A stretch of DNA of 64,000 nucleotides from an uncultured Acidobacteriota bacterium (GTDB taxonomy: Bacteria; Acidobacteriota; Vicinamibacteria; Fen-336). Positions 3,683 to 57,607 of the stretch are shown in pieces. The stretch is taken from positions 2,243,256-2,307,255 of the forward strand of contig CAVOPG010000002.1 of assembly GCA_963697835.1 (NCBI GenBank), given 5' to 3'. The stretch's first letter is position 1, and each line of letters begins with the position of its first letter. A model generated the notes under the pieces. That model ran no database searches. It saw nothing but the letters and a program-made list of their open reading frames with translations, and was not told the DNA's origin. The translations under genes were made by a program, and so were the position numbers.

Positions 3683-6600
3683 CTACTCCATGTACCCGTT
3701 GACGTCGATGATGACGTGCCCGGTCCCCGTCGGCGCCAGGAGGACTCCGATGTCCCCGTTGGTGCCCAGCGCCACGAACCCGTTGTTCGCGCGGGTCTGT
3801 CCGGTGCTGAAGTTGACGGAAGACGTCGCCGGCGCCGGCGTCCCGCCCGGGAACAGCCTCACGTTGCCGCCGGCGGTGGAGCCGGTCACGGTGACGTTGT
3901 ACGAGATGGCCCGGGCCGTCGGCGGGATGAGGCAGTTCCCCCCCACGACCGTGAAGGTCCGTGAGACGCCCGCGACGAGAGGCGCGCCGGGTGCGGGATA
4001 CCGGGTGTCGACGAGCCGGCACGGAGCGACCGTGTAGAAGCCCATCGCGATCTGGGAGAGCGAGTCGCCGATCGTGGCGGTGGCCATCCCCGCCCCGGTG
4101 GCGATAGTGGCGTTCGTGGGCGAGGACAGGGTCAGGGTGAAGGTCTCCGCGCCCTCGACGAGCGCGTCGGAGAGAACCGCGACGTCGACCGTCCGGGTGA
4201 GGTCCCCGGGGTCGAAGGAGAGAGTGCCGGAGGTCGAGGTGTAGTCCGAGCCGGCCAGGGCCGATCCGTTCGCCGTCGCGTAGTCGACGGTGACGGTGCT
4301 GCCGGAGGCGCCGCTCAGGGTCACGGTGAAGGTCGCGTTGACGCTGCCGCTGAGCGGCTCTGTCGCCTGGACGGCGAGGGGCGAGAGCGAGATCGTCCGG
4401 GGCGAGTCGTCGTCGAGGATGATCCCGAGCGCCTTCGTGCGGGCGAGGGTCGCACCCCCGGTGGGGCCGCTCAAGCTCAACCCGAAGGACTCGTTGGCCG
4501 CCTCGACGGTGGTGTCGCCGATGACGGACACCGACACCTGCTGGGACAGCACGCCGGGGGCGAAGGTCACGAGCGTCGACAGGGTCATGAAGTCCGTCCC
4601 CGCGGTGGCCGCGGGCGGGGTGGGGCCGCCGGGGCTCGTCGCCGCGTTCACGGTGACCGGCTGGGCGTGATCGCCGCTCACGGTCAGCGTGAACGTCGCC
4701 GGCGTGGTGCCGGAGTTCCCCTCCGTCACCGAGACGTCCGCCACGTTGATCGTCAGCACGTCGTCGTCCGTGATCGTGCCGTCACCTCGGCTGTCCGAGA
4801 TCGCGGGCCCGGTGCTGTTCGACAGCACGACGGCGAAGGTCTCGTTGGCCTCGTCCAGGGTGTCGCCCACCACCGGTACCGTCACGGTCCTCGTGGTGGT
4901 CCCCGCCGTGAACGTCAACGTGCCCGACGCGGCCAGGTAGTCGACTCCCTCCGTGGCGGGGTTCGTAATCCCGGCCGCAGTCGCCCAGTTGACGGTGAAG
5001 TCGCGGTAGTAGGGCGTATTGAGGCTGAGGCTGACGGTGAAGACCGCGTCCGTCGTGCCGGCGTTGCCCTCCGGGATCGTCACGTTGTTGATGGCCACCG
5101 TGGCCGTGTCGTTGTCGTTGATCGTCCCCACCGCGTCTCCGTCGAGGATGAGCGGCCCGCTGCTGTTCGAGAGGTGGACGAGGAAGGTCTCCGCCGGCTC
5201 GTCGACGAGGTCGCTGTTGACGGTCACCGTGAACGTCCTGGTCCTGGTCCCCTGGGGGAAGCTGAGGGTGCCCGAAGTGGACACGTAGTCGACTCCGGCC
5301 GTCGCCGGCTGCGCGCCGCCGTCGGCCGTCGCGTAGTCGACGGTGAACGCGCTCTTGTTTCCGGCGACGTCCGCGGTCGACACGGTGAACGTCACGGTGG
5401 CGGTGCCGGTGTTGCCCTCGGTCGTGCTCGCGTCGGCCACCGAAACCGTCGTGTCGTCGTCCGTGATCGTGGCGAGGCCGCTGGTGTCCGAGATGCCGGG
5501 ACCGGTCGAGTTGGACAGGACCAGGGTGAAGGCCTCGTTGCTCTCGTCGAGAACGTCCCCGAGCAGCGGCACCGTGAGCGACCTCTGGGTCGCTCCCTTC
5601 GGGAAGAAGAGCGTCCCCTGGACGGCCGTGTAGTCGAGTCCGGCCTTCGCGGTGCCGTCCACGGTCGTGTAGTTGAGCGTGAAGTCGCGGTAGTAGGGGG
5701 TCGAGATGGTGATGTTGAACGTGGCGTTGGTGGTGCCCGTGTCGCCTTCGGGGATGTTGCCGGCGTCGGCAATGGCGAGCGTCGAGTTGTCGTTGTCGGT
5801 GATCTGGCCGACGCCGCGGCCGACGCCGACCCAGGCTCCCCAGTTGCTGGCCGTGTCGAGGTCGACCCAGAACTTCTCGTTGGGCTCGTCGATCGTGTCG
5901 TCGAACGTCTCGACGCTGATGGTGTGGGTCGTGTCCCCCGGGCGGAAGACGAAGAAACCCGACGTCTCGCGGTAGTCGAGGGCCGGGTCTGCCGGCGGAT
6001 CCTCTCCGCCCACGCCGCTCGTCCAGTAGAGCCGCGTCGTCTTCTCGCTCGGCTTGTTGTTGAGCGTCGCCTGGAAGACGGCGAACGGGGGATTGGTGGC
6101 GGACTCGGTCACCGTGACGCTGTTGAGCGAGACCGTCGGCCAGTAGGGCCCGTCGGGTCCGGGGACGTCCTCGTTCTCGATCCAGGCGGCCGCCGTCGGG
6201 ACCGCGATGGTCCCCTCGGTCGGGTTGAAGATCTCCACCGCGAAGGACTTGTAGTGGTCCTCGTAGGCCTGGTCGTTGACCGTCGCAATGGAGAGGGTGA
6301 CGGTCTGGGGTGTCGAACTCGTGGTCGCGGCGAACTTCACGGGCGTGTGCGTGAGCACGTGGACGCCGGGCGCGAAGGTCATCTTTTCGACGTAGTCGGT
6401 GCCCGGTTTGGCCGTGATCGCGACCGTGCGGTAGTCGACGTAGATGTCGGCGGCGTGCCCTCCGGTGCCGCTGGTCAGGGTGACCTTGAAACTGATGCTG
6501 CTTCCTTCCCGGACGCACACCGAGGTGGGGGCACCGACGCAGACCGGGGGATTCTGGGCCGGTGGGGTCACGCCATCGATCGACAGGGTGGGGGCGGCGG

Positions 6601-10138: not shown

Positions 10139-12219
10139 TCACCACACGTCGCAGCGCTTGTCGGACGGACGGACCATGGGCGCGCCGGCTGGGCAGCCGA
10201 AGGCCTTCTCGAACTCCGGCAGGTTCGACAGCGGGCCGATGACGCGGTACTTCCCCGTCGGGTGCGGGTCGCCCTGCACCATCAGCCGCTGGGTCTCGGG
10301 ACGGATGGCGTCGCCGCGGAACTGGCCCCAGGCGATGAAGAACTGCTGCTCCGGCGTGAAGCCGTCGACCGTGGGCGCGGGCGCCTTGCCCTCGAGCGAC
10401 TTCAGGAACGCGCGGTAGGCGATCCTGGCGCCGGCGAGGTCGCCGATCGACTCGCCGAGGACCAGCTTGCCGTTGTGGTGGATCCCGGGCTCGATCTCGT
10501 AGCTCTCGAACTGGTCGACCACGCACTGCCCCCGCGCCCGGAACTTCGCGAGGTCCGCCGCCGCCCACCAGTTCCGGAGCCGCCCCTGCGCGTCGTACTG
10601 CGCGCCCTCGTCGTCGAAGCCGTGGCTGATCTCGTGGCCGATGACCACTCCGATGGCGCCGTAGTTCACGGCGTCGGCCGCGTCCACGCTGAACGCCGGG
10701 GGCTGCAGGATCCCCGCCGGGAACACGATCTCGTTCAGCAGCGGGTTGTAGTACGCGTTCGAGGTGGGCGGCGTCATCCCCCACCGGCCGCGGTCCACCG
10801 GCTTGCCGACCTGGCTTCGTTCGTCGTCCACGTTGAACTTCCGTCCCGGCCGCCACGTTCGCCCAGTAGGCGTCGCGCCCGATGGGCACTCCGGAGTAGT
10901 CCTTCCACTTGTCGGGATAGCCGATCTTCGGGTTGAAGGTCGCGAGCTTCTCGAGGGCCTTCGCCTTCGTCTCCGGTCCCATCCACCCGAGCCCCCGGAT
11001 GGTGTCGCCCATGGCGAGGAGCAGGTTCTTCACGAGCTCCTGCATGCGGGCCTTCGCTTCCGGCGGGAAGTGCTTCTCGACGTACTTCCGGCCGAGCGCC
11101 TCGCCGAGAACGGCGTCCGTCGACTCCGCGCAGCGTTTCCAGCGGGGCTTCATCTCCTTCGCCCCGCCGAGGTACTGCTCCTCGAAGGCGAAGGCTTCCT
11201 TCACGAAGGGCGACGAGAGGTGCGGGGCGGCGGACCGGACGAGGTGCCAGCGGAGGTACGCCTTCCAGGAGGCGAGGGGCGTCTCCAGGAAGAGCCGGTC
11301 CATGGCCTTCAGGAACTCGGGTTCCTGGACATTGAGGGCGGAGCGCGGCAGCTTCGCGGCGGCGAAGTAGCCGGGCCAGTCGAAGTTCGGGGCGAGGTCC
11401 GTGAGGGCCACGAAGCTCGTCTTGTGGTCGGTGGCCCTCGGGTCGCGGCGGGCCACGTTGTCGAGCGACGCCAGGGCGAGCTGCTTCTCCATGCGGAAGA
11501 CGGCCTCCGCCGCGAGGCGCGACTCGGCACGTGCTCTTTCCGCTCAGCTCGACGAGGTGCGCCACGTGGACCCGGTACTTCTCGCGCGCCTCCTGGAAAC
11601 GGGGCTCCGTCTTCACGTAGTAGTCGCGGTCGGGCAACCCGAGGCCCGAGGCGAGAACGTCCGCGATCACCCGCGTCGGCGCGTGGTTGTCCGGCGAGGC
11701 GCGGAGTCCGAACGGCACCTGGATCGCCATCTCGTGGAAACGGCCGATCATCTTGTCGACGACGCCGATGTCGGCCAGGGCCGTCGATCTCGGCGAGCAG
11801 GGGTTTGATCGGCTCCAGGCCCAGAGCCTCGACGCGCGCCTCGTCCATGCACGCGCCGTAGTGGTCGCCGACCAGCTGCTCGACGCTCCCCTTCGGCCAG
11901 TCGGTCCGGGCCGACTGAGCCCGTCGAGGATCGCGTTCAGCTGGTCCTTGGCCGTCTCCCCCGCCGCCCAGCGGCGGCTCCAGCGCACCATCGACGGCGG
12001 GATCGGATTGGCGGCCCGCCAGGCCCCGTTCGCGAACTCGAAGAAGTCGACGCAGGGCGCGACCGATCGGTCCAGGTCGCCCGTCTCGATGCCCGTCCGG
12101 GCGGGCACGTCGGCGGCGAGGGCGGACGAAGCGAGGGCGAGGAGCGCGGCGGCGGCGAGCGGTCGCAGGGCTTCCGGCCTACTTGCCCGCTTCGAACGGC
12201 GCGGCCAGCTTCGTCCCAC
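10139..12219 (-). pseudogene. M13 family zinc metallopeptidase (PepO/endothelin-converting-enzyme-like), interrupted by 4 frame changes
   Basis: Segments lie in three frames. They are CVDFFEFANGAWRAANPIP... (frame of 12219), ARTDWPKGSVEQLVGDHYGACMDEARVEALGLEPIKPLLAEID (frame of 11848) and LADIGVVDKMIGRFHEM...YYVKTEPRFQEAREKY. They continue with MEKQLALASLDNVARRDP...YWANVAAG (frame of 11492) and GKPVDRGRWGMTPPTSNAYYNP...VIGHEISHGFDDEG...CDVW* (frame of 10831, HExxH present). The shifts fall near 11911, 11782, 11538 and 10844. Confidence 0.85.
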
Positions 12220-12699
12220 CCCAGCTCAGGCCGAAGCTGCCGCCCTTCGCCGCGGGCGCGAGGTCGATGGTGAACGTCTCGACCGGGCTGGCCAGCGCGG
12301 TCTTCGTCATGGCGACGCTGCACGACGTCCTTGGCCGGGTCGTGCTGCGTCCCCCACTGCCCCGTCTGGGAGTTGAAGACCAGCTGGAACGCGTCCCCGC
12401 TCTTCTTCAGCCAGAGGCTGTAGGCTCCCTTGGGCGACCTTCGTCGCGCCGAACGAGAGGTCGACGGGTGTCGTCAGGACCGTGGCCTGGTTCATGCCCA
12501 TCCGCCAGAACGCCCCCTCCTGCAGCTGGGACAGCATGTCCCGCCCCTTGAGCGATGGACGGCCGTAGTCGACCGTGATCGCGCCCGATCCCGCCTTCAG
12601 CTCCGCCTTGCCCCGCTCCGCCTGTGCGCTCGCGGGCACCGTGAGGACGAACGACAGCATTCCAGGGAACGTCCAGGCGAGAACCTTCTTCAGTGTCAT
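12179..12699 (-). pseudogene. DUF2911-like secreted protein, 2 frame changes
   Basis: ATG 12699 follows GGGAGG. The protein begins MTLKKVLAWTFPGMLSFVLTVPASAQA...GAFWRMGMNQATVLTTPVDLSFGATKVA. It continues in a second frame as KGAYSLWLKKSGDAFQLVFNSQTGQWGTQHDPAKDVV and in a third as MTKTALASPVETFTIDLAPAAKGGSFGLSWGGTKLAAPFEAGK* (stop 12179-12181). The shifts fall near 12434 and about 12310-12325. Confidence 0.7.
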
Positions 12700-12740
12700 G
12701 GATACCTCCCTTTCCAGCTTCCTTCGCCGGCGGCTCACTG

Positions 12741-13883
12741 TCAACGGCCCGGCATGTACAGCCCCGCGACCTCGAGGGCGAGCGCGCGCGGGTCGAGGTC
12801 GTCGCGGTTGCAGAGGACGACGACCGTGAGCCCGTCGTCGGGGAAGCGCTCGATCACCGTGCGGAAGCCGACGGTCGATCCCTGGTGCCACATTCGCGGC
12901 CGGCCGTGCCACGGGTCGAGGAACCAGCCGAACCCGTAGGACACGGGACGGCCGGGGTCGAGGTTGTCGCCGCCCGCCTCGGAAGGCCACCTGGGCTCGG
13001 ATCCGTCGAGGAGCCGCACCGGCGTGAGCGCGGGCTTCATCGCCCCCGGGGAGAGGAGCTCGCTCACCCGCAGGGCCTCGTCCCACTTCGCGAGGTCCTC
13101 GAGGTTCGAGTAGACGCCGCCGTCGCCGAGCGTCGCCGACGTGGGGCTCTGGTCGGTTTCCCGGAAGCCGGCGCCGTCCTTCGCGTGGCCGAAGGCACGG
13201 CGCTCCACCTCGTTCCTTCCCCTCGCGAACGCGAGCGTGTGGCCCATCGCCAGGGGTTTGAAGATCCGCTGGTGCAGGAAGTCGCCGAACGGCTTCCCCG
13301 AGGCGCGCGCGACGACGAGGCCCAGCACGACGTAGCCCGAGTTGCTGTAGGCCCAGCTCGTTCCCGGGGCGAAGCGGCCCTTCGTCTCGCCCCGCAGGAG
13401 AGCGAGGACCTCGTCGTCGTGGATCTGTCGGTCGGCCGTCCAGATCGGCGCCCGGCCCTTCTCGGCCGCCGCCATCAGGTCCTCGTAGTCGGGCAGGCCG
13501 GAGGTGTGGGTGAGCAGGTGGCGGATCGTGATCCCCTTGCCGTAGGCCGGGAAGGCGGGGAAGACGTCGGTGAGCGCGTCGCCGTAGCGCAGCTTGCCGT
13601 CGCGCACGAGCAGCATGACGGCCATGGCCGTGAACTGCTTGGTCACGGAAGCGAGGCGGAAGCTCGTGTCGGGATCGATGCGCTCGCGCGACCGGAGATC
13701 GCGGACGCCGTACCCACGCTCGAAGACCGTCTTCCCGTCTTGCCGCACGAGGACCGCGAGGCCGGGTTCGTCGGTGCGCACGAGCTTCTCGAGGATGCTC
13801 GCGGTCTCGGCCTCGCGGGGGTCCCGGCCGGACGACGCGAGCGCCAGGAGCGCCGAGACCGCGGACACGCCCGCGAGCGTCAA
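12741..13883 (-). CDS. Serine hydrolase, beta-lactamase/transpeptidase-like family (class C/EstB-like)
   Basis: SxxK motif SVTKQF, YSNSGY, and a typical body. The TTG start (13883) overlaps the upstream stop (TTGA) and follows AAGGAGGG. The signal-like N-terminus is LTLAGVSAVSALLALASS. Confidence 0.85.
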   Translation of the reverse strand: MTLAGVSAVSALLALASSGRDPREAETASILEKLVRTDEPGLAVLVRQDGKTVFERGYGVRDLRSRERIDPDTSFRLASVTKQFTAMAVMLLVRDGKLRYGDALTDVFPAFPAYGKGITIRHLLTHTSGLPDYEDLMAAAEKGRAPIWTADRQIHDDEVLALLRGETKGRFAPGTSWAYSNSGYVVLGLVVARASGKPFGDFLHQRIFKPLAMGHTLAFARGRNEVERRAFGHAKDGAGFRETDQSPTSATLGDGGVYSNLEDLAKWDEALRVSELLSPGAMKPALTPVRLLDGSEPRWPSEAGGDNLDPGRPVSYGFGWFLDPWHGRPRMWHQGSTVGFRTVIERFPDDGLTVVVLCNRDDLDPRALALEVAGLYMPGR

Positions 13884-14588
13884 CGGGGCTGGCCCTCCTT
13901 CGCCCGGTCGTAGATGCGCTTCAGGGCGACGCCCGGCCCGAGGCCGCCTTCCATCTTGACGTTGACGATGAGGCGGCTGCCGTCGGGGATCATCTCCCAG
14001 GTCTCGACCACGCTGCCCCCGCGGGTCTGCCTCGTTTCGACGAGGAGCTTGCCCTCCTTCCAGGAGGTCTTGAGCTCCGACGCGCCGTTGTCGGTCTTGT
14101 ACTTCTTCCCGTCGGGGTGGAGCCGGCGCATCCGGCCGAACTTCTCGTCGATGGCGATCTCGGAAGCCTCCTGCACGATCGCGAGCTCCTCGGCCGGCTC
14201 GAAGATCGAGTGCATCGACTCGCGTGCGTCGTCGTCCCCGTCCATCCCGCCGGGCGGCGGACTCATCCGGCCACCTCGACCACCCATCCCTCCGCTGCCA
14301 CCCATGCCGCCCCCACCCGGACCACCCGTCCCGCCGCCGCCAGGCCCACCGCCGGGTGCTCCACCGCCAGGCCCACCCCTGCCCGAACCGTCTCGCCCCT
14401 CCTGGCCGTCGCGCATCTTCTCGCGCGCGTCGTCGCTCAGCTCGCGGTTGTAGACCCAGCGGCCGGAGAGATCCACGGTGACGGCCGGCAGCTTTCGCCT
14501 TCTCGTCAGCCTGGGCGAGCGGTGGACCGAGGGCGACGCCGGGGGAGAACGCGAGAGCACACGAGAGGAACGCCGTTCGCATCGTCAT
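13880..14588 (-). pseudogene. Secreted hypothetical protein with Gly-rich low-complexity core, 1 frame change
   Basis: ATG 14588 follows AAGGAGGG. The signal peptide is MTMRTAFLSCALAFSPGVALGPPLAQA DEKAK. The frame then shifts at an AAA run (plus-strand ttt 14493-14495) into ORF 13880..14560 (LPAVTVDLSGRWVYNRELSDD...GGPGGGAPGGGPGGGG...KRIYDRAKEGQPR*). Confidence 0.55.
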
Positions 14589-15013
14589 CGGACCCTCCTT
14601 CGCCGCGCCCCGCGGGGAGGCCCGGCGTCGTCCTCGGTACCGAGCATTAGACGACACTCGGCGGCATCGATTCGTAAAGAGACCGCAAAACTTCGTGCTC
14701 CGGGACGAGGAGTCCGAGCGGATGGAGAAGGGAACGGGCGTCGTGAGTCAGCCAGGCGCCAGAGGGCAACGGAAAGGCCCAGACATGAGAGCGCCCCTTG
14801 AGCTGTCGGGGGGATTGACAAGTTCCTGGGAGGGTCCAAACTGGAGGGAATCGTATCGTCATAAGAAGGCGCAGGTCCGGCCCGCGCATCGCCTTCCCTC
14901 AGCCGGTGGGCCCCTGACGAGGGCTTCGCACCGGGCGTCCCCCGCGAGTGAAGAAGAGATCGGCCCGACCAGGACGACGGTGTCCCGGCCGGCAAGAGAG
15001 AAGGCGGTTGGCG

Positions 15014-15172
15014 ATGCCCGAGCTGGTGCACTCGACAGAGTGCGCGTGCCATGACTGCTGGAGCCGCCGGCTGATTCGTGACTCCGGCCCGGCCTCCGGA
15101 CCCTACTCCGCCGATGAGATGGAGGACTTCGGCCACCTTCTGACGGAGCGCAAGCTCAGCCAGGAAGAGTGA
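15014..15172 (+). CDS. Possible small Cys/His-rich protein (52 aa), hypothetical
   Basis: MPELVHSTECACHDCWSRRLIRDSGPASGPYSADEMEDFGHLLTERKLSQEE. About 43 of 51 codons end in G/C (hand count), unlike the surrounding lower-GC spacer. The RBS is weak (gagaaggcgg). I recognise no homolog. Confidence 0.25.
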   Translation: MPELVHSTECACHDCWSRRLIRDSGPASGPYSADEMEDFGHLLTERKLSQEE

Positions 15173-15195
15173 CCACTTAAGACCGAAGGCCATCC

Positions 15196-16555
15196 TCACT
15201 CTTCCACCAAGCCCGCCGTCATTTCCTCCGAGGGCTCACCTCCGGCCATTGCCTGGGCCACGATCAGGCGGCGCGCCTCCACCCTGATCTTGGGCAAGCG
15301 TCAGCCCGAACCAGACGGCACCTCCCAGGCACGCCACGGCCCCCATGGCAACCGTGAGGGGTGCGCCCAGCCGGTGAGCCAGCGCTCCTCCCATCAACGC
15401 TCCGAACGGCGCCATCCCCATGAACATCATCGAGTACACGGACATCACCCGGCCGCGCAGGTGGTCCGGCACCATGGTCTGGATCAGCGTGTTGGACGAC
15501 GCCATCTGCAGCATCATGCAGAACCCCGCGGGCACCAGAAGCGCCGTGGAGACCCAGAAGCTGCGCGAGAACGCGAAGAGGACCAGCGCGGCCCCGAACC
15601 CACCACACGAGTACGCCACCCACCGGCCCAGTCCACGCACGCCGGTCCGCGAGGCCAACGTGAGCGCAGCCAGCAGCGCCCCCACGCCGGTGGCGCTCAT
15701 CAGGATCCCCAGGCCGCGGGCTCCGCCGTGCAGGATCCGGTCAGCGAAGAGCGGCATGAGCACCGTGTAGGGCATGGCCACCAGGCTGACGAGCCCGAGA
15801 AGGAGCAGAATCGCCCGGATCGGACGCGTATGCCGCACGAAGCGGAAGCCCTCGACGATCTGCGTCAGTGGCGAGCCGGAGGGCGGGCTTCTGGAAGGGA
15901 CGCGGCACTCGCATCATCGTCAGCCCGACGATCACCGCGATGTAGCTGACGGCGTTCGCGAAGAAGCACCATCCTTCACCGATCATCGCCACCAGGATTC
16001 CGGCGACCGCGGGCCCGACGATTCGCGCCCCATTGAACATGGAGGAATTCAGGGCGATGGCGTTCATCAGGTCTTCCTTGCCGACCATGTCGACGAGGAA
16101 GGCCTGTCTGGCCGGGATGTCGAACGCATTCGCCACGCCGAGGGACGCCGCCAGCACCAGGATGTGCCACACCTGCACCTTCCCGGAGAGCGTCAACGCC
16201 GCGAGCAGGAAGGCCAGCACCATGGAGGCCGTCTGGGTCCCGATCACGATCCGCTGCCGGTCGTAGCGGTCGGCCACCGTCCCGCCCAGTGGAGCCACCA
16301 GGAAGACCGGGATCTGGCTCGACGAACCCCACCGTGCCCAGCAAGCAGCGAAGAGCCGGTGAGCCGGTAGACCAGCCAGGACAGCGCCACGGTCTGCATC
16401 CACGTGCCGGTCACGGAGATGAGCTGTCCGCCGAAGAAGAGCTGGAAGTTGCGGTGCTTCAGGGCGCGCAGGGTCGTCGGCAGCCCGCCACCGCCCGGTC
16501 CGCCCGGAGCGGGACGGCTGTGGAGCCCGTCTCGAGAGACGGCTGGGTTGCTCAC
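15196..16555 (-). pseudogene. MFS transporter (EntS/DUF894-like family), 4 frame changes
   Basis: The segments, in order, are LRALKHRNFQLFFGGQLISVTGTWMQTVALSWLVYRLTGSSLL, then LGTVGFVE, then QIPVFLVAPLGGTVADRYDRQRIVIGTQ...GLTMMRVPRPFQKPA. They continue with SGSPLTQIVEGFRFVRHTRPIRAILLLLGL...AVWFGLTL and then PKIRVEARRLIVAQAMAGGEPSEEMTAGLVEE* (stop 15196-15198). The shifts fall near 16343, 16319, 15882 and 15295, and each behaves as +1. Confidence 0.8.
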
Positions 16556-42756: not shown

Positions 42757-42903
42757 GAGGCCATCCTAATGGCCCGGCGGCCGGCGTCGGGAGAGCCAAA
42801 CGGTCCAGTACCCGGTGCCCCCCCGCCGCGCTCATCCGCTCCATTCCCGTCGCGCATGGGCGCCCGCCCGCGTGCTAGACTCCGCGCCTCGACGGAGGAG
42901 AAC

Positions 42904-43272
42904 ATGCTCAAGGGTTTCCGCGACTTCCTCATGCGCGGCAACGTGGTGGAGCTCGCCACGGCCGTGATCATCGGGGCCGCCTTCGGCGGCGTCGTGGACG
43001 GGCTCATCAAGGGGGTCATCGATCCGCTGATCGCGGTGCTCGCGCCCGGCGAGGTGAAGGAGCTGCAGAACGCGCTCGTCTTCGGGCCGTTCCACATCGG
43101 CCTCGTCCTCTCGGCGTTCGTCAATTTCCTCCTGAAGGCCGGGGTCGTCTACTTCTTCATCGTCCGGCCGTTCGCGAACTTCGCCGCGAAGCTCGCGGCG
43201 GCGCCGGCGCCGCCCGCGGCCGAGGTCCAGCTGCTCACCGAGATCCGCGACCTGCTGAAGGACAAGAAGTAG
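42904..43272 (+). CDS. mscL: Large-conductance mechanosensitive channel
   Basis: MLKGFRDFLMRGNVVELATAVIIGAAFGGVVDGLIKGVIDPLI... RBS GGAGGAG. Confidence 0.95.
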   Translation: MLKGFRDFLMRGNVVELATAVIIGAAFGGVVDGLIKGVIDPLIAVLAPGEVKELQNALVFGPFHIGLVLSAFVNFLLKAGVVYFFIVRPFANFAAKLAAAPAPPAAEVQLLTEIRDLLKDKK

Positions 43273-43295
43273 AATCGCCGACAGCCTCGCGAACT

Positions 43296-43597
43296 TCAGG
43301 CCTCGATCACGATCAGGTGCTCAGGTCCTGCCCCCCGGACGGCTTTCAGGGGAATCGACCGGTCGAACGTGGCCAGCCGGCCGCCGTGGGCCCTGGCGAG
43401 CCCCAGCAGGTAGACGTCCGTGAGCTGGCGGTGGCTGACGGCCAGGCTGAAGAGCTCGGCGGCGAGAGAGAGATGTCGTCGGGCCAGAAGACGTGGTGGC
43501 CGCTGGCGCGGAAGGTCCGGAGGTGGTCGGCGACGACGTGCTCGGGATCGAAGAGGGCGACGAGGACGTTCACGTCCAATAGAGCCGGCCGTCTCAC
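43296..43597 (-). pseudogene. vapC: PIN-domain toxin (VapC) with a frame change in a (TC)n run and an apparent internal deletion
   Basis: MRRPALLDVNVLVALFDPEHVVADHLRTFRASGHHVFWPDDISL is in one frame. AAELFSLAVSHRQLTDVYLLGLARAHGGRLATFDRSIPLKAVRGAGPEHLIVIEA* is in another. The junction lies in the plus-strand gagagagaga run at 43464-43473 and behaves as +2. The reconstructed length is only about 99 aa. The segment normally found between the first Asp region and the H.FWPDD motif seems to be missing. Confidence 0.65.
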
Positions 43598-43821
43598 GGC
43601 TCGTCACGCAGCCGGTTGACGAGCTCCGGGGTCGGCTTGGGCCCTCCCGCGGGACGTCGAGGCAGCAGCGGGACGCCGTTGCGCACGCGAAACCGGCGCC
43701 TCGGCTCGAGCGCCTTCCGGGCCAGCTCCGAAATCACCCTCCCGGCGGTCGTGCCCCGGTTGGCCGCGAGGTCCTTCGCCGCCTGCAGGATGTCGTCGTC
43801 GATCTCGAGGGTGGTCCTCAT
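43594..43821 (-). CDS. vapB: Type II antitoxin (VapB-like)
   Basis: MRTTLEIDDDILQAAKDLAANRGTTAGRVISELARKALEP... The stop overlaps the toxin ATG by 4 nt. Confidence 0.7.
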   Translation of the reverse strand: MRTTLEIDDDILQAAKDLAANRGTTAGRVISELARKALEPRRRFRVRNGVPLLPRRPAGGPKPTPELVNRLRDEP

Positions 43822-43891
43822 TGTCGTATCATCTCGCATCACGCATCCGGGGGCACCGGGATAGAATGGGTTTCTCGTTCCCGGAGAGCCC

Positions 43892-45080
43892 ATGCCCATC
43901 TACCACCAGCTGGGGCGCGTGCCCCGCAAGCGCCACGTCGCCTTCCGCAAGGACGACGGCTCGCTCCACTACGAGGAGCTCGTCGGCAACCAGGGCTTCA
44001 CCGGACCCTCGTCGCTCCTCTACCACCTGCGCCTGCCCACCGCGGTCACGAGCGTTCGCCCGATCCGGGGCCTCGGCTGGGTGGCGGAAGCCGGAGCGCG
44101 TGGTGCGCCACCGCCACTTCCGCACCTCCGGCCTCGCGACCGGGCCGAGCCCGGTCCTCGACCGCGTGCCGCTCCTCTTCAACGCGGACGTCGCGATCTC
44201 GATGGCGCGCCCGCGGAAGGAGGACGCCTTCTTCTACCGCAACGGCCAGGGCGACGAGGTCGTGTTCGTGGTGGAGGGCGAAGGGGTCGCTCGAGTCGCC
44301 CTTCGGCGACCTCGCCTACCGGCCCGGCGACTACGTCGTCATCCCGCGCGGGATCCTGCACCGGTGGCGCCTGGGCCCGGGACCCACGCGCGCTCCTCGT
44401 CATCGAGAGCGCCGGCTACGTCCGCACGCCGACGCGCTACCGCAACGAGCACGGCCAGCTCACCGAGATGGCGCCCTTCTCCGAGCGCGACATCCGCCGG
44501 CCGGAGCGCCTCGTGACGCACGACGAGACCGGCGAGTTCCCGATCGTGGTGAAGAGCGGCAACCGCCTCGTGGAGATGGTGATGCCGCACCACCCCTTCG
44601 ACGTCGTGGGCTGGGACGGCTACTACTACCCCTGGGCCTTCAGCATCCACGACTTCGAGCCGCGCGTCGGCCGCGTGCACCTGCCGCCGCCGGTGCACCA
44701 GACCTTCGAGGGCGAGGGCTTCGTCGTCTGCTCGTTCTGCCCGCGGCCCTACGACTTCGAGCCCGAGGCGGTCTCGGCGCCCTACAGCCACCAGAACGTG
44801 ATGTCCGACGAGGTGCTCTTCTACGCGAACGCCGAGTTCATGAGCCGCAAGGGCATCGAGCTCGGCTCGATCACGCTCCACCCCGACGGGTTGCCGCACG
44901 GCCCGCAGCCGGGCAAGACCGAGGAGTCGATCGGGGCCACGAGCACGAACGAGCTCGCGGTGATGGTCGACACCTTCCGGCCCCTGCTCGTGAGCCGCGA
45001 GGCGCTCGCGATCGAGGACGCCTGCGTACCAGCTCTCCTGGCTCGATCCGCAGCCCGGCGAGCTGCCGGGCGGAGAGTGA
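43892..45080 (+). pseudogene. hmgA: Homogentisate 1,2-dioxygenase (short cupin-type), 4 frame changes
   Basis: MPIYHQLGRVPRKRHVAFRKDDGSLHYEELVGNQGFTGPSSLLYHLRLPTAV is in the frame of 43892. ERVVRHRHFRTSGLATGPSPVLDRVPLLFNADVAISMARPRKEDAFFYRNGQGDEVVFVVEGEG is in the frame of 43821. SLESPFGDLAYRPGDYVVIPRGILHRWRLGP is in the frame of 43420. The protein then returns to DPRALLVIESAGYVRTP...PHHPFDVVGWDGYYYPWAFSIHDFEP...APYSHQNVMSDEVLFY...LHPDGLPHGPQPG...AIED and ends with PAYQLSWLDPQPGELPGGE* (stop 45078-45080). The shifts fall near 44080-44100, 44285 (GGGG run), 44380 and 45020, and all behave as +1. Confidence 0.8.
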
Positions 45081-45112
45081 GCCCCGCGAGTCGCCGGACG
45101 GGCGGGCGAGAA

Positions 45113-46048
45113 ATGACCGCGGCACGGGCCCTGCTGGCCGGGCTCGTGGACTACGCCGGCCTCTTCCCTCCGGCGGCGCTGTCGATGGAGGAGGCGGTCG
45201 CGGAGTACGCCCGGTGGCGACGGTCGCCGGAGGCGTGGATGCTCGGTCGCTTCGTGCTGCCGGCCGCGCGGCTCGTCGAGCTCGCGCGGCGCCGCCGACG
45301 CCCACCTGCCCGAGCCCGGCGCCGGCGAGCCCTGGCGACTGAGCGCGCTCCTCGGCGCCGACGTGCACGGCGACTCGGCGCTCGTGACGTCGTTCAACGC
45401 GCGCGAACGCAGGACGTGCGGTCGTGGACGCGGTCGAGCTGAAGGCGGGGAGCGCCGAAGGACGCCGAGGCTGCCCTCGAGGCGCTGCCGCCCGGCCTCG
45501 CCGCCTTCGTCGAGGTGCCGCTCGGCGGCGATCTCGCCGGCGTGCTCGCCGACACTGGGCCGTCGCCGGCGCGCGCCAAGGTCCGCACCGGCGGCGTCGT
45601 CCCGGAGGCCATCCCCGACCCCGCCGACCTCGCCCGCTTCATCGCCGCCTGCGCCACGGCGGGGGTGCCGTGGAAGGCCACCGCCGGGCTCCACCACCCG
45701 GTCCGCGGCGAGCGGGCGCTCACCTACGAGCCGGGGGGCCCGCGCGCGGTGATGCACGGCTTCCTGAACGTGTTCGCCGCGGCCGCCTTCGCCCGCGCGG
45801 GCGCCGCGCTCGCCGACCTCGAGGCCGTCCTGCGCGAGGAGGAGGCCTCGGCCTTCCGCCTCGACGAAGACGGCCTCGCCTGGCGCCACCTCCGCGTCTC
45901 GGCGGACGACGTCCTCGAGGCCCGCCGCGACTTCGCCACGTCCTTCGGCTCCTGCTCCTTCGCCGAGCCCGTGGCCGACCTGCGCGCGCTCGGGGTGCTT
46001 GCCCTGGCCGAGGGGCCGGGAGCGGCCCTCGCGCGGGAGACCCCGTGA
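45113..46048 (+). pseudogene. Conserved-looking hypothetical protein between hmgA and fahA, 3 frame changes
   Basis: The segments, in order, are MTAARALLAGLVDYAGLFPPAALSMEEAVAEYARWRRSPEAWMLGRFVLPAARLVELA, then GAADAHLPEPGAGEPWRLSALLGADVHGDSALVTSFNAR, then AGRAVVDAVELKAGSAE. The last segment is DAEAALEALPPGLAAFVEVPLGGDLAGVLADTGPSPARAKVRTGGVVPEAIPDPADLARFIAACATAGVPWKATAGLHHPVRGE...FGSCSFAEPVADLRALGVL... The shifts fall near 45287, 45408 and 45460, and all behave as +1. I recognise no family. Confidence 0.55.
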
Positions 46049-47376
46049 TCCCGAAGACCGACGACACGCACGACGCGTCGCTCCGCAGCTGGGTCGAGTC
46101 GGCGAACGATCCCGCCACCGACTTCCCCGTCCAGAACCTGCCCCTCGGCGTCTTCCGCCGCGGGGGCGCGCGGCCCGCGCGAATCGGGTGCGCCATCGGG
46201 GACCAGGTCCTCGACCTCGCCGCCTGCGCGGAGCGGGGTCTCCTGCGCGGGCTGCCGTCCGACGTGGAGGACGCCTGCCGCGGGACGAGCCTCAACGCGC
46301 TCATGGCCCTCGAGGCGCGGGTGCGCGGCACGCTGCGTCACCGCCTGAGCCACCTGCTGCGGGCGGAGGGCGGCTTCGTGACCGCCCGCAGCGACGCGGC
46401 GCAGGTGCTGGTGCGCCAGGCGGACGTCGAGATGCTCCTCCCGGCGAAGGTCGGCGACTACACCGACTTCTACGCCTCGGTCTTCCACGCGACGAACGTC
46501 GGCAAGATGCTGCGCCCCGACAACCCGCTGCTGCCGAACTACAAGTGGGTGCCGATCGGCTACCACGGCCGCGCCTCGTCGCTCGTGGTGAGCGGGACTG
46601 CCGTCAAGCGGCCGAGCGGCCAGACGGAGACGGCCGGCGGCGGGCCGCCTGGCTTCGGCCCGAGCCGCAACCCTCGACTACGAGCTCGAGGTCGGCGCCT
46701 TCCTGGGCCCGGGCAACGCGCTCGGGGAGCCGGTCCCCCTGGCGGAGGCCGAGGGCCGGATCTTCGGCCTCTGCCTCGTGAACGACTGGTCGGCCCGCGA
46801 CCTGCAGAAGTGGGAGTACCAGCCGCTCGGGCCCTTCCTCGCCAAGAGCTTCGCGACCTCGGTGAGCCCGTGGGTGGTGACCCTGGAGGCGCTCGCGCCG
46901 TACCGCGTGCCCGGCCTTCGCCCGGCCCGAAGGCGACCCGCGGCCCCTGCCGTACCTCACGCACGAGGAGAACGAGGCGCACGGCGGGATCGACCTGCGG
47001 CTCGAGGCGCTCCTCCTCACGCCGACGATGCGCGAGCGAGGGCTGCCGCCGCATCACGGTGAGCCGGAGCAACCTCCGCGACCTGTACTGGACCCTCGCC
47101 CAGATGGTGGCGCACCACGCGTCGAACGGCTGCAACCTCCAGCCCGGCGACCTGATCGCGAGCGGAACGGTGTCGGGAGAGGACGAGGAGGCGCGGGGCT
47201 GCCTCCTGGAGAGGACGTGGCGCGGGACGATGCCCCTGGCGCTCCCTTCGGGGGAGGAGCGGCGCTTCCTGGAGGACGGCGACGAGGTGATCCTGCGCGG
47301 CCACTGCGAGCGCGAGGGCTTCGCGCGGATCGGCTTCGGCGAGTGCCGAGGGGTGGTGACGGGGGCGACCGGCTGA
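46045..47376 (+). pseudogene. fahA: Fumarylacetoacetase, 3 frame changes
   Basis: The GTG start overlaps the upstream stop (GTGA). SWVESANDPATDFPVQNLPLGVFRR...[56 protein letters not shown]...FGPSRN is in frame 1. [80 protein letters not shown] is in frame 2. [46 protein letters not shown] is in frame 0. The protein returns to frame 1 with [42 protein letters not shown]... The shifts fall near 46672 (CCC run), 46913 (GG run) and 47046-47056, and all behave as +1. Confidence 0.85.
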
Positions 47377-47382
47377 CGCTGG

Positions 47383-47739
47383 CTAGTCCGGCGTCGCGAG
47401 GCCAAGAACGAGCCGCACGCCGTCCTCGACCTGCCGTAGCGTCGCGGGAGGCAGACGGCCGATCCTCGCCCCGAGAAAGCGCCGGTCGAGAGTCGAGATC
47501 TGCGTCACGTTGACGACTGAGGGCTCCGCCAGCCCCGTCCCGCGGGGGCGGCAGGCGACGTTGCCGGGTGCTTCGGCGAGACGCAGGTTGGTCGTCAGCG
47601 ACACGACCACGACCGTCTGGAGCTTGCTTCGGTTGAAGCTGTCGGCTTGGACCACCAGCACCGGGCGCCGTAGCGCCGGCTCCGACCCCCGCGGCTCGCC
47701 GAGGTCGGCCCACCACAGCTCACCTTTCTGGACCGTCAT
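47383..47739 (-). CDS. mazF: Type II toxin, MazF/PemK family endoribonuclease
   Basis: Intact 118 aa. MTVQKGELWWADLGEPRGSEPALRRPVLVVQADSFNRSKLQTVVVVSLTTNLR is the family signature. Confidence 0.85.
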   Translation of the reverse strand: MTVQKGELWWADLGEPRGSEPALRRPVLVVQADSFNRSKLQTVVVVSLTTNLRLAEAPGNVACRPRGTGLAEPSVVNVTQISTLDRRFLGARIGRLPPATLRQVEDGVRLVLGLATPD

Positions 47740-47969
47740 CTCGACCGTCGCAGCGTGGCCCGGGCGGAGGCCGCGAGAAAGGGATCGGCGGGGCGGGGTG
47801 TGTCCGCATAGACCTCGTCGAGCCGTCGCGTGATTTCGTCCTCCGAGACCGTCGCGAGGAAGGCCTCCATGGCCTTCACATAGATCCGGCTCCGGGGCAC
47901 TCTCAGCCGGCGCGCGACCCGGTCGGCGGCCTGGTGGACGCGGTCGGGAACGGATATCGCGACCTTCAT
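47736..47969 (-). CDS. mazE: Type II antitoxin (ribbon-helix-helix, MazE/CopG-like)
   Basis: MKVAISVPDRVHQAADRVARRLRVPRSRIYVKAMEAFLA... (77 aa). The stop overlaps the mazF ATG by 4 nt. Confidence 0.65.
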   Translation of the reverse strand: MKVAISVPDRVHQAADRVARRLRVPRSRIYVKAMEAFLATVSEDEITRRLDEVYADTPRPADPFLAASARATLRRSR

Positions 47970-48107: not shown

Positions 48108-49271
48108 ATGGCGAAGGCGGAGTCTCTCGGCATCCGGCGGCTCGAGTCCGTGCACTACTACGTCCACGATCTCGAGCGCAGCCGCCGCTTCTACACCGAC
48201 GTCATGGACTTCGCCGAGATCGGCGGCAGCTCCGAGGAGCTGACGACGGCCGGCCGGCAGAAGTCGCTCGCCTTTCAGGCCGGCAACTGCGTGGTCGTCT
48301 GCATCGAGCCCCGGGGCGAGGGCGGGCGCGCCTGGCGCTGGCTGCGCAAGCACCCGGACGGCGTCGGCACGTTGAACTTCGAGGTGGAGGACGTGGAGAA
48401 GACGTTCCGGCTCCTCGAGGGGCGGGGCGGGACGCCGATCGACGACGTCCGGCGGTTCGAGGACGAGGGCGGCGACGAGATCGCCTTCTTCTCGATCACG
48501 ACGCCCTTCGGCGACACGACGTTCCGCTTCGTCGAGCGGCACGGCTACCGGCGGCTCTACCCCGGCTTCGAGCCCCACGCGACCCCCCGGGGCGGGCAGA
48601 ACCGCCTCGGCTTCGTGGGCTTCGACCACACCACGTCGAACTTCCCCACCCTCGGCCACGTCGCCCTCTGGCTCGAGCACGTGATGGGGTTCGAGCGGTT
48701 CTGGGAGATCCAGTTCCACACGAACGACGTGGACCCGGCTCACGAGCACGGCTCCGGGCTGCGCTCGCTCGTCTACCGGGACCCCGTCTCGGGAGTGAAG
48801 TTCGCGAACAACGAGCCCTGGCGTCCGAACTTCCGCGGCTCGCAGATCAACGTCTTCAACGAGGAGCTGCGGGGGGCCGGCGTCCAGCACCTCGCCATCA
48901 CGGTCAAGGACATCATCGGCTGCGTCCGGCTCCTGCGCGAGCGAGGGCTCGAGTTCATGCCGACGCCGGGGACCTACTACGACGCCCTCCCCGCGCGCTT
49001 GAAGACCCTCGGCATCGGCTCGATCGACGAGGACCTCGCGGTGCTGCGCGACCTCGAGATCCTGGTGGACGGGGACGGGCCCGGGAAGTACCTGCTGCAG
49101 ATCTTCGTGAAGGAGTCCTCGGGGATGTACCACGACGCCGGCGCGGGCCCCTTCTTCTTCGAGATCATCCAGCGGAAGGGGGACGAGGGATTCGGGGGCG
49201 GGAACTTCCGGGCGCTCTTCGAGTCGATCGAGCGCGCGCAGCAGGGGCAGCTACAGGGAGCGAAGCCCTGA
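48108..49271 (+). CDS. hppD: 4-hydroxyphenylpyruvate dioxygenase
   Basis: ATG 48108 follows CAGGAGG. Intact with two VOC domains. Motifs include GFDHTTSNFP, SGLRSLVYRDPVSGVKFANNEP, GAGVQHLAI and FFFEIIQRKGDEGFGGGNFRALFESIE. Confidence 0.9.
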   Translation: MAKAESLGIRRLESVHYYVHDLERSRRFYTDVMDFAEIGGSSEELTTAGRQKSLAFQAGNCVVVCIEPRGEGGRAWRWLRKHPDGVGTLNFEVEDVEKTFRLLEGRGGTPIDDVRRFEDEGGDEIAFFSITTPFGDTTFRFVERHGYRRLYPGFEPHATPRGGQNRLGFVGFDHTTSNFPTLGHVALWLEHVMGFERFWEIQFHTNDVDPAHEHGSGLRSLVYRDPVSGVKFANNEPWRPNFRGSQINVFNEELRGAGVQHLAITVKDIIGCVRLLRERGLEFMPTPGTYYDALPARLKTLGIGSIDEDLAVLRDLEILVDGDGPGKYLLQIFVKESSGMYHDAGAGPFFFEIIQRKGDEGFGGGNFRALFESIERAQQGQLQGAKP

Positions 49272-56749: not shown

Positions 56750-57607
56750 TCACTGGTAGCGGCACGAAGCCTGGTCGGCCTCCTCGTAGTACGACCGGTA
56801 GTTCTTCGCCTTCTTGTCCGTGCAGCCGACGAGGTTCAGCAGCTCCACCTTCCGGAACTCGACCGGGTGGCTCTCGGCCTGGAGCGAGATCGAGCCGCCG
56901 GTGAGCAGCTGGCCGTCCTTCTTCACCGCCGGGTCGTGGTTCAGGACGTTGCCGCCGCCGATCTGCGGCTTCTCGTACGCGAGCACGGTCTCGCCGTTCA
57001 CCTTGTGGGTGATCGCGCCGCCGCCGTGGACCTCGACCTCGACGCGAACCCACTGGTCCCCGTCGAACGTCTTCGAGGTCGAGTTGACGCAGTGCTGCGT
57101 CTCCAGCTTCCCGTTCATCACCACGTTCGTCCCCGGCGTGCAGACGTTCGCGGTCGGGCGGGGCTTGCCGTCGCCCCGTCCGCCGAGGAGCTGCACCTCG
57201 ATCGAGATCGGGAAGTCCTGGTCCTTCCTCATCGTCTCGACCGGCTGGCCGTGGATCATGATCCCGCTGTTGCGGAAGCCCCAGTCCGGGCCGCCTTTCG
57301 TCTGCTCGCCCGTGAAGCGGTACTCGACCGCGATCACGTAGTGCGAGAAGGGCGTCCGGTAGAAGAGGTGGCCGAAGCGGTTGCCGAAGGTGTCGTACCG
57401 GTCGTAGGCGACCTTCGGAGCACGCCGTCTTCGACCCGGAACGTGTTGCCGAAGTTCTCCCCCGACCTCGTAGCCGGTGATCTTCGGCACCCAGCCGTCG
57501 AGATTCTTCCCGTTGAAGAGCGGGATCCACTCCTTCCGGTCCGGGTCTTCCGAGAAGGCGAGGGCGGGGGCGAGGAGCAGCAGCAGGACGAGAGCGTGTC
57601 GCTTCAT
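56750..57607 (-). CDS. DUF1080 (3-keto-disaccharide hydrolase-like) protein with an internal compensated frameshift
   Basis: Signal peptide, WIPLFNGKNLDGWVPKITGYEVG and ...SISLQAESHPVEFRKVELL. Residues GELRQHVPGRRRRAPK are out of character. Shifting the frame across 57421-57475 gives ENFGNTFRVEDGVL, which fits the family. Confidence 0.8.
   Translation of the reverse strand: MKRHALVLLLLLAPALAFSEDPDRKEWIPLFNGKNLDGWVPKITGYEVGGELRQHVPGRRRRAPKVAYDRYDTFGNRFGHLFYRTPFSHYVIAVEYRFTGEQTKGGPDWGFRNSGIMIHGQPVETMRKDQDFPISIEVQLLGGRGDGKPRPTANVCTPGTNVVMNGKLETQHCVNSTSKTFDGDQWVRVEVEVHGGGAITHKVNGETVLAYEKPQIGGGNVLNHDPAVKKDGQLLTGGSISLQAESHPVEFRKVELLNLVGCTDKKAKNYRSYYEEADQASCRYQ

Follow-up and report, generated by a model that had tools for sequence, protein, structure and literature searches.

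The question raised by this locus is whether an uncultured member of the Vicinamibacteria (Acidobacteriota) has lost the ability to cleave homogentisate. The window analysed here is the whole 64,000 nucleotide (nt) stretch C2:2243256-2307255 of the metagenome-assembled genome (MAG) G000, GenBank assembly GCA_963697835.1. Within it, positions 43296-47376 (C2:2286551-2290631) carry a tyrosine-breakdown cluster in which hmgA, a conserved open reading frame (ORF) called here the middle ORF, and fahA are each split by changes of frame, and the adjacent hppD is intact. Comparison with related loci and with the remainder of the genome indicates that the ten +1 changes in these three genes are almost certainly uncorrected single-base insertion errors in the consensus, rather than mutations of the organism. 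The three genes are most likely intact in the real bacterium, where together with hppD they would form a functional cluster.

With 6.96 Mb in 9 contigs, the Vicinamibacteria MAG G000 is highly contiguous and has the look of a long-read assembly. Its completeness score is only 65%, compared with up to 100% for relatives of 5-6 Mb, and its reported contamination and heterogeneity are low (1.5%). The relatives found through HppD are also Vicinamibacteria MAGs. When intact orthologues were searched against the window with tblastn, each gene gave one gapped, single-frame high-scoring segment pair of 60-69% identity that masked the shifts, because the off-frame translations remain open in DNA of 72% G+C. 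DNA alignment was used in place of tblastn for locating the shifts.

A MAFFT alignment of window positions 43800-47400 with seven same-genus loci (L002-L008, 76-83% DNA identity), all of which have the same hmgA, middle ORF and fahA cluster, identified exactly ten 1-nt insertions private to the window and no 1-nt deletion. Four are in hmgA (43892..45080, forward strand), which encodes a protein like the short-type homogentisate 1,2-dioxygenases, at 44088, 44289, 44392 and 45023. Three are in the middle ORF (45113..46048, forward strand), a conserved hypothetical gene with a TIM-barrel-like predicted product, at 45290, 45399 and 45454. The last three are in the fumarylacetoacetase gene fahA (46045..47376, forward strand), at about 46669 (46669-46671), 46910 (46910-46913) and 47053. 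The same three fahA insertions are seen in a second comparison, with locus L038 of a short-read relative that is 93% identical, and in this comparison the hppD coding sequence (CDS) is free of insertions and deletions (indels). The initial annotation, made from the window alone, had counted ten shifts in the three genes (four, three and three), all of them +1, and the alignment bears this out, with every insertion lying within about 10 nt of the annotated position.

Two other features of the annotation were less durable. Several of the shifts had been placed in runs of G or C; this holds for about 4-5 of the 10 insertions, which can be placed within a run of identical bases, but the others are in mixed sequence. 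The agreement between the edges of the damage and gene boundaries, which had been remarked upon, carries no weight, because at about 2.6 events per kb the edge of a patch is uncertain by a few hundred bases; the final insertion, at 47053, is 320 nt within fahA. The G+C content of the damaged stretch is 72-78%, and that of the mscL and hppD flanks is 68-70%. Separately from the single-base insertions, two longer segments are private to the window, one of 51 nt at the 3' end of hmgA (45056-45106) and one of 41 nt at the 3' end of the middle ORF (46000-46040). These give C-terminal extensions that are not present in the seven relatives.

Taken at face value, the deposited sequence describes a pathway that has truly become pseudogenised by ten insertion mutations, with hppD and the remaining flanking genes open, so that homogentisate would build up and pyomelanin would be formed. 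In Pseudomonas, Burkholderia and Vibrio, loss of hmgA is well known to lead to pyomelanin, which speaks for the idea. The same step is apparently broken here, ahead of an intact hppD, as in the hmgA-loss pyomelanin producers Pseudomonas aeruginosa, Burkholderia and Vibrio cholerae. A pathway that had been lost in this way could be expected to show relaxed selection or further decay, in the form of stop codons or larger indels, and both were sought in the three genes by reading them in register with the codons of the intact orthologues in the relative G002. Neither was found. Once the inserted columns are set aside, none of the three genes has a stop codon or a gapped codon. The ratio of nonsynonymous to synonymous substitution rates (dN/dS) between the window and its relatives is 0.16-0.30 for hmgA, 0.29-0.42 for the middle ORF and 0.21-0.33 for fahA, against means among the intact relatives of 0.24, 0.40 and 0.31, respectively, and these values fall within the spread obtained when intact relatives are compared with one another. 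The read-through FahA aligns without a gap over residues 1-442 to the intact 442 amino acid (aa) fumarylacetoacetase P0121, with 94.6% identity. Besides the inserted bases, therefore, all three genes are under normal purifying selection, and at least 14 other Vicinamibacteria MAGs carry the cluster in intact form. Ten mutations of the same type and the same direction without any other decay are unlike what is seen in pseudogenes.

The essential genes of the same assembly show the same lesion. The single occurrence of rpoB in G000 (C6:8266-12527) is split over three frames. In four relatives rpoB is in one frame and encodes 1438-1462 aa (1438 aa in both G001 and G002). Against G001 and G002, at 90% DNA identity, the G000 gene has four private 1-nt insertions in its CDS and one more just upstream, with no 1-nt deletions. 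The adjoining rpoC (both genes lie within C6:4144-12527) is likewise split over three frames. Since a living cell cannot have rpoB and rpoC broken, this type of lesion must be technical.

The extent of the problem was assessed with a codon-phase hidden Markov model (HMM), in which codon-position base frequencies taken from long ORFs were used in a 7-state Viterbi decoding of the whole genome. An event was counted where the phase changed on the same strand and the upstream frame was free of stops within 60 nt of the change. At the present locus the model recovered 8 of the 10 aligned insertions, two of them merged as one +2 call, as well as a frame change in the neighbouring vapC, and the rpoB events were likewise recovered. 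Over 6.96 Mb a total of 5,146 stop-less, same-strand frame changes were identified (7.4 per 10 kb); 4,343 of them (84%) are +1 and 803 are +2. In a control of 400 kb drawn from three relatives the frequency is 0.5-1.1 per 10 kb, and neither direction is favoured (21 +1 and 14 +2).

These events are far from evenly distributed in the genome. In 5-kb bins the ratio of variance to mean is 4.1, and 353 bins are empty where 34 would be expected. Patches of 5 or more events number 354; their median span is 3.3 kb, and they hold 2.6 events per kb. The clean gaps reach about 50 kb, and the 118 that exceed 10 kb together make up 2.0 Mb. The patch at the tyrosine-breakdown cluster has 9 HMM events across 43465-47035, and 8.4% of all 4.08-kb windows genome-wide have 9 or more. 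As so many windows of equal length are as badly affected, the locus is a typical patch and is not specific to the pathway. Coupled with some 5,000 copies of the same lesion genome-wide, including those in rpoB and rpoC, and with genes that show no decay, this makes true pseudogenisation highly improbable. It also sets G000 apart from the bacteria in which hmgA loss causes pyomelanin, as its breaks are neither pathway-specific nor accompanied by decay and are best read as consensus errors. The annotation had offered both a genuine loss of homogentisate cleavage, with pyomelanin, and a locally low-quality segment with insertion-biased errors. The first is not supported by these results. The second is supported by the +1-biased patches and the rpoB and rpoC lesions, with the amendment that the poor quality is not special to this locus but belongs to a genome-wide, patchy process.

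Elsewhere in the window the HMM identified seven frame changes at 10840-16324, none at 19783-40540 and none past 47035. At 57420-57459, comparison with L038 reveals two insertions, of +2 and +1, which are separated by 39 nt in an ORF that remains open and form a compensated pair that is probably a product of the same error process.

A uniform +1 direction in genes that otherwise look conserved also calls to mind recoding. Programmed +1 ribosomal frameshifting is known from prfB and occurs genome-wide in Euplotes. It might be supposed that the insertions in G000 are real and that the cell reads through them, by genome-wide programmed +1 frameshifting or by quadruplet decoding; all of the aligned events at the locus are +1, and the affected genes, the essential ones included, look selected. 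The 15 aligned insertion sites were inspected for a slippery motif, codon or quadruplet common to them, and none was found. Unlike the programmed cases, the sites in G000 have neither a shared shift site nor a stop-codon context, they are not conserved in close relatives, and the events follow patches of the chromosome rather than genes or codons. No bacterium is known to use +1 frameshifting or quadruplet decoding on such a scale, and the probability of this reading is practically negligible. The broader proposition is that the extra bases are real in thousands of genes, rpoB and rpoC among them, and are bypassed at the level of RNA or of the ribosome, which would amount to +1 recoding in a free-living bacterium. 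It fares hardly better; it is strongly disfavoured because the sites lack a shared motif, because the events are distributed in patches and because relatives that are 90-93% identical lack the insertions at the same sites.

A bias in direction and a clustering unrelated to gene function would be expected of consensus error, and both are seen in G000. The assembly is a mosaic in which clean stretches, the longest of about 50 kb, alternate with dirty kb-scale patches where frame changes number about 2.6 per kb, and window positions 43.4-47.1 kb form one of these patches. The patches may be places where the consensus was built from few reads or which polishing did not reach. The density of frame changes increases monotonically with local G+C content: it is less than 1 per 10 kb where G+C is below 66% and more than 10 per 10 kb where it is above 76%. 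A G+C-dependent drop in polishing coverage would fit this rise. The patchiness could stem from dips in coverage, from a loss of polishing reads that depends on G+C or from strain collapse. As its sole cause, G+C content is suggestive but falls short, with a Spearman rho of only 0.24, a correlation to which HMM sensitivity may itself contribute if it varies with G+C.

Strain collapse would also be an artefact, with a mechanism that differs from low coverage or missed polishing. In this case two or more strains would have been assembled together, with both alleles of polymorphic sites kept in series, generating apparent 1-nt insertions, and the patches would mark strain heterogeneity. The position of the insertions mainly in mixed sequence rather than in homopolymers, the kb-scale patchiness and the metagenomic origin of the sequence are all in keeping with this. 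However, the reported contamination and heterogeneity of G000 are low, and the dependence on G+C is explained more easily by a bias in coverage or polishing. Strain collapse is therefore an unlikely, although not a negligible, origin of the errors.

Gene-fragmenting indel errors have been described in long-read genome and metagenome assemblies (PMC12007338, Kastor; PMC9262707, Sereika et al. 2022). G000 resembles such assemblies in having ORFs broken throughout by single-base indels, in having its completeness lowered despite high contiguity and in having essential genes affected. It differs from them in three respects. The residual errors in G000 are overwhelmingly insertions, by about 5:1 or more; they are strongly clustered in kb-scale patches; and more than half of the insertions at this locus are outside homopolymers, whereas the residual nanopore error usually described is an indel within a homopolymer.

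Several points weigh against the conclusion that the insertions are errors of the consensus. The artefact has been deduced from assembled sequence, and what gave rise to the patchiness and to the excess of insertions is likewise a matter of deduction. The genome-wide count comes from a home-made HMM that was validated at only two loci and against the 400 kb of controls. In addition, searches with HppD, MazF and the read-through FahA found no sequence of the same strain without the insertions. The exact HppD has no record elsewhere, and the best match to the read-through FahA in the protein collection is the one of 94.6% identity, hence not a same-strain copy. The exact MazF is present on one 1.2-kb Logan contig (run ERR12036778), whose overlap with fahA is limited to the final 25 codons, past the last insertion.

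The breaks at the tyrosine-breakdown cluster make up one of several hundred error patches, and therefore no inference on metabolism, such as pigment or pyomelanin formation, can be drawn from them. Until reads indicate otherwise, pseudogenes, frameshift clusters, decaying paralogues and compensated frameshifts in G000 should all be treated as artefacts. The codon-phase HMM tells such assemblies apart from good ones, by a frequency of 7.4 rather than about 1 per 10 kb and by the strong +1 bias, and could be used to flag them up front. The same caution extends to isolated hppD frameshifts in other highly contiguous MAGs of the genus. For example, hppD at L083 has a private 1-nt insertion (at about 6290) and the hppD ORF at L002 is split (at about 5640-5750).

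The identities of fahA and hmgA were assessed on their intact orthologues. The G002 orthologue of fahA scores 540 bits on TIGR01266, for which the cut-off is 375.3. The window fahA matches the same model in three frames, with 204, 143 and 150 bits, that together cover model positions 1-418. The G002 orthologue of hmgA, of 387 aa, scores 41.8 bits on the Pfam family HgmA_N (cut-off 20.2) and 54.9 bits on TIGR01015, which is far under the cut-off of 510.75. hmgA would thus appear to be a divergent, short-type homogentisate 1,2-dioxygenase gene, a function suggested by its conserved adjacency to hppD and fahA. The short-type hmgA adjoins hppD in many Myxococcota too. In the window, hppD (48108..49271, forward strand), encoding 4-hydroxyphenylpyruvate dioxygenase, is intact and matches in a single frame with tblastn at 88% identity.

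A useful biological by-product of the analysis is the uncharacterised, fahA-linked and TIM-barrel-like family to which the middle ORF belongs. The middle ORF has no matches in Pfam or NCBIfam, and its homologues fill at least 8,000 metagenome clusters, every one of them unnamed or called "hypothetical protein". Its orthologues include L060:3764-4654 and L120-L142. An AlphaFold2 model made from a 10-sequence alignment has a predicted local distance difference test score (pLDDT) of 86, a predicted template modelling score (pTM) of 0.87 and an alternating beta/alpha pattern. Foldseek returned only weak matches for it, to TIM barrels with TM scores (template modelling) of 0.39-0.46, and the fold is therefore best described as TIM-barrel-like in prediction. 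Of 151 Acidobacteriota genomes, 22 have fahA, 20 have the middle-ORF family and 19 have both. In 17 of 18 foreign genomes the family member immediately precedes fahA and shares its strand, with identities of only 34-46%.

The canonical maleylacetoacetate isomerase gene, maiA (TIGR01262), is above cut-off in just one genome, which itself has no fahA, and the fahA-bearing genomes do not have even a weak match to it. Because of its co-occurrence with fahA, its adjacency to that gene and this lack of maiA, the middle-ORF family is the strongest candidate to supply the missing step, maleylacetoacetate isomerisation. The assignment is tentative, and it is possible, although the odds are against it, that the family has a role in this step as a glutathione-independent isomerase. 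In the 1980s, Gram-positive bacteria were reported to have a maleylacetoacetate isomerase activity that does not depend on glutathione, with no gene assigned to it, and a search for such a gene found nothing relevant in the literature covered. Invariant residues of the family are Cys180, Cys281 (in the motif FGSCSF), Lys156, Lys188, His194 and His195. Conceivably, catalysis could proceed by a thiol-dependent cis-trans isomerisation.

Two pairs of toxin-antitoxin genes are associated with the cluster. Upstream, on the reverse strand, are the remnant of the PIN toxin gene vapC (43296..43597) and the antitoxin gene vapB (43594..43821). The latter is open, encodes 75 aa, is 86% identical to its orthologue in G008 and has a weak match to Pfam VapB_antitoxin. 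The vapC remnant was delimited by DNA alignment with the intact G008 orthologue and by tblastn of its pieces. No complete, single-frame PIN domain was found in it, and the pieces have no Pfam match. Against the G008 orthologue there is a 1-nt deletion at the TCTCTCTCTC run, which is the (TC)5 run at 43464-43473, and the PIN core has lost 135 nt by an in-frame internal deletion of 45 codons. The annotated +2 shift at the (GA)5/(TC)5 run is thus correct in its site and frame, but the lesion itself is a 1-nt deletion. The large deletion is probably real; an in-frame loss of 135 nt is unlike the type of error found elsewhere. vapC is probably a genuinely degraded toxin gene, on the evidence of this alignment, and is to be kept separate from the genes with insertion errors.

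The genes that flank the damaged stretch had been annotated as intact, and this is so for mscL, mazE, mazF and hppD, all of which are open, with hppD indel-free against L038. mscL (42881..43272, forward strand) is an intact ORF, and positions 42866-43276 align without gaps to L083. The second toxin-antitoxin pair, mazF (47383-47739, an open ORF matching PemK_toxin) and mazE (47736-47969, an open ORF), both on the reverse strand, is between fahA and hppD in G000 only. In G009 (L038), G002 (L060) and other relatives, fahA is followed directly by hppD, so that mazEF looks like a recent toxin-antitoxin insertion.

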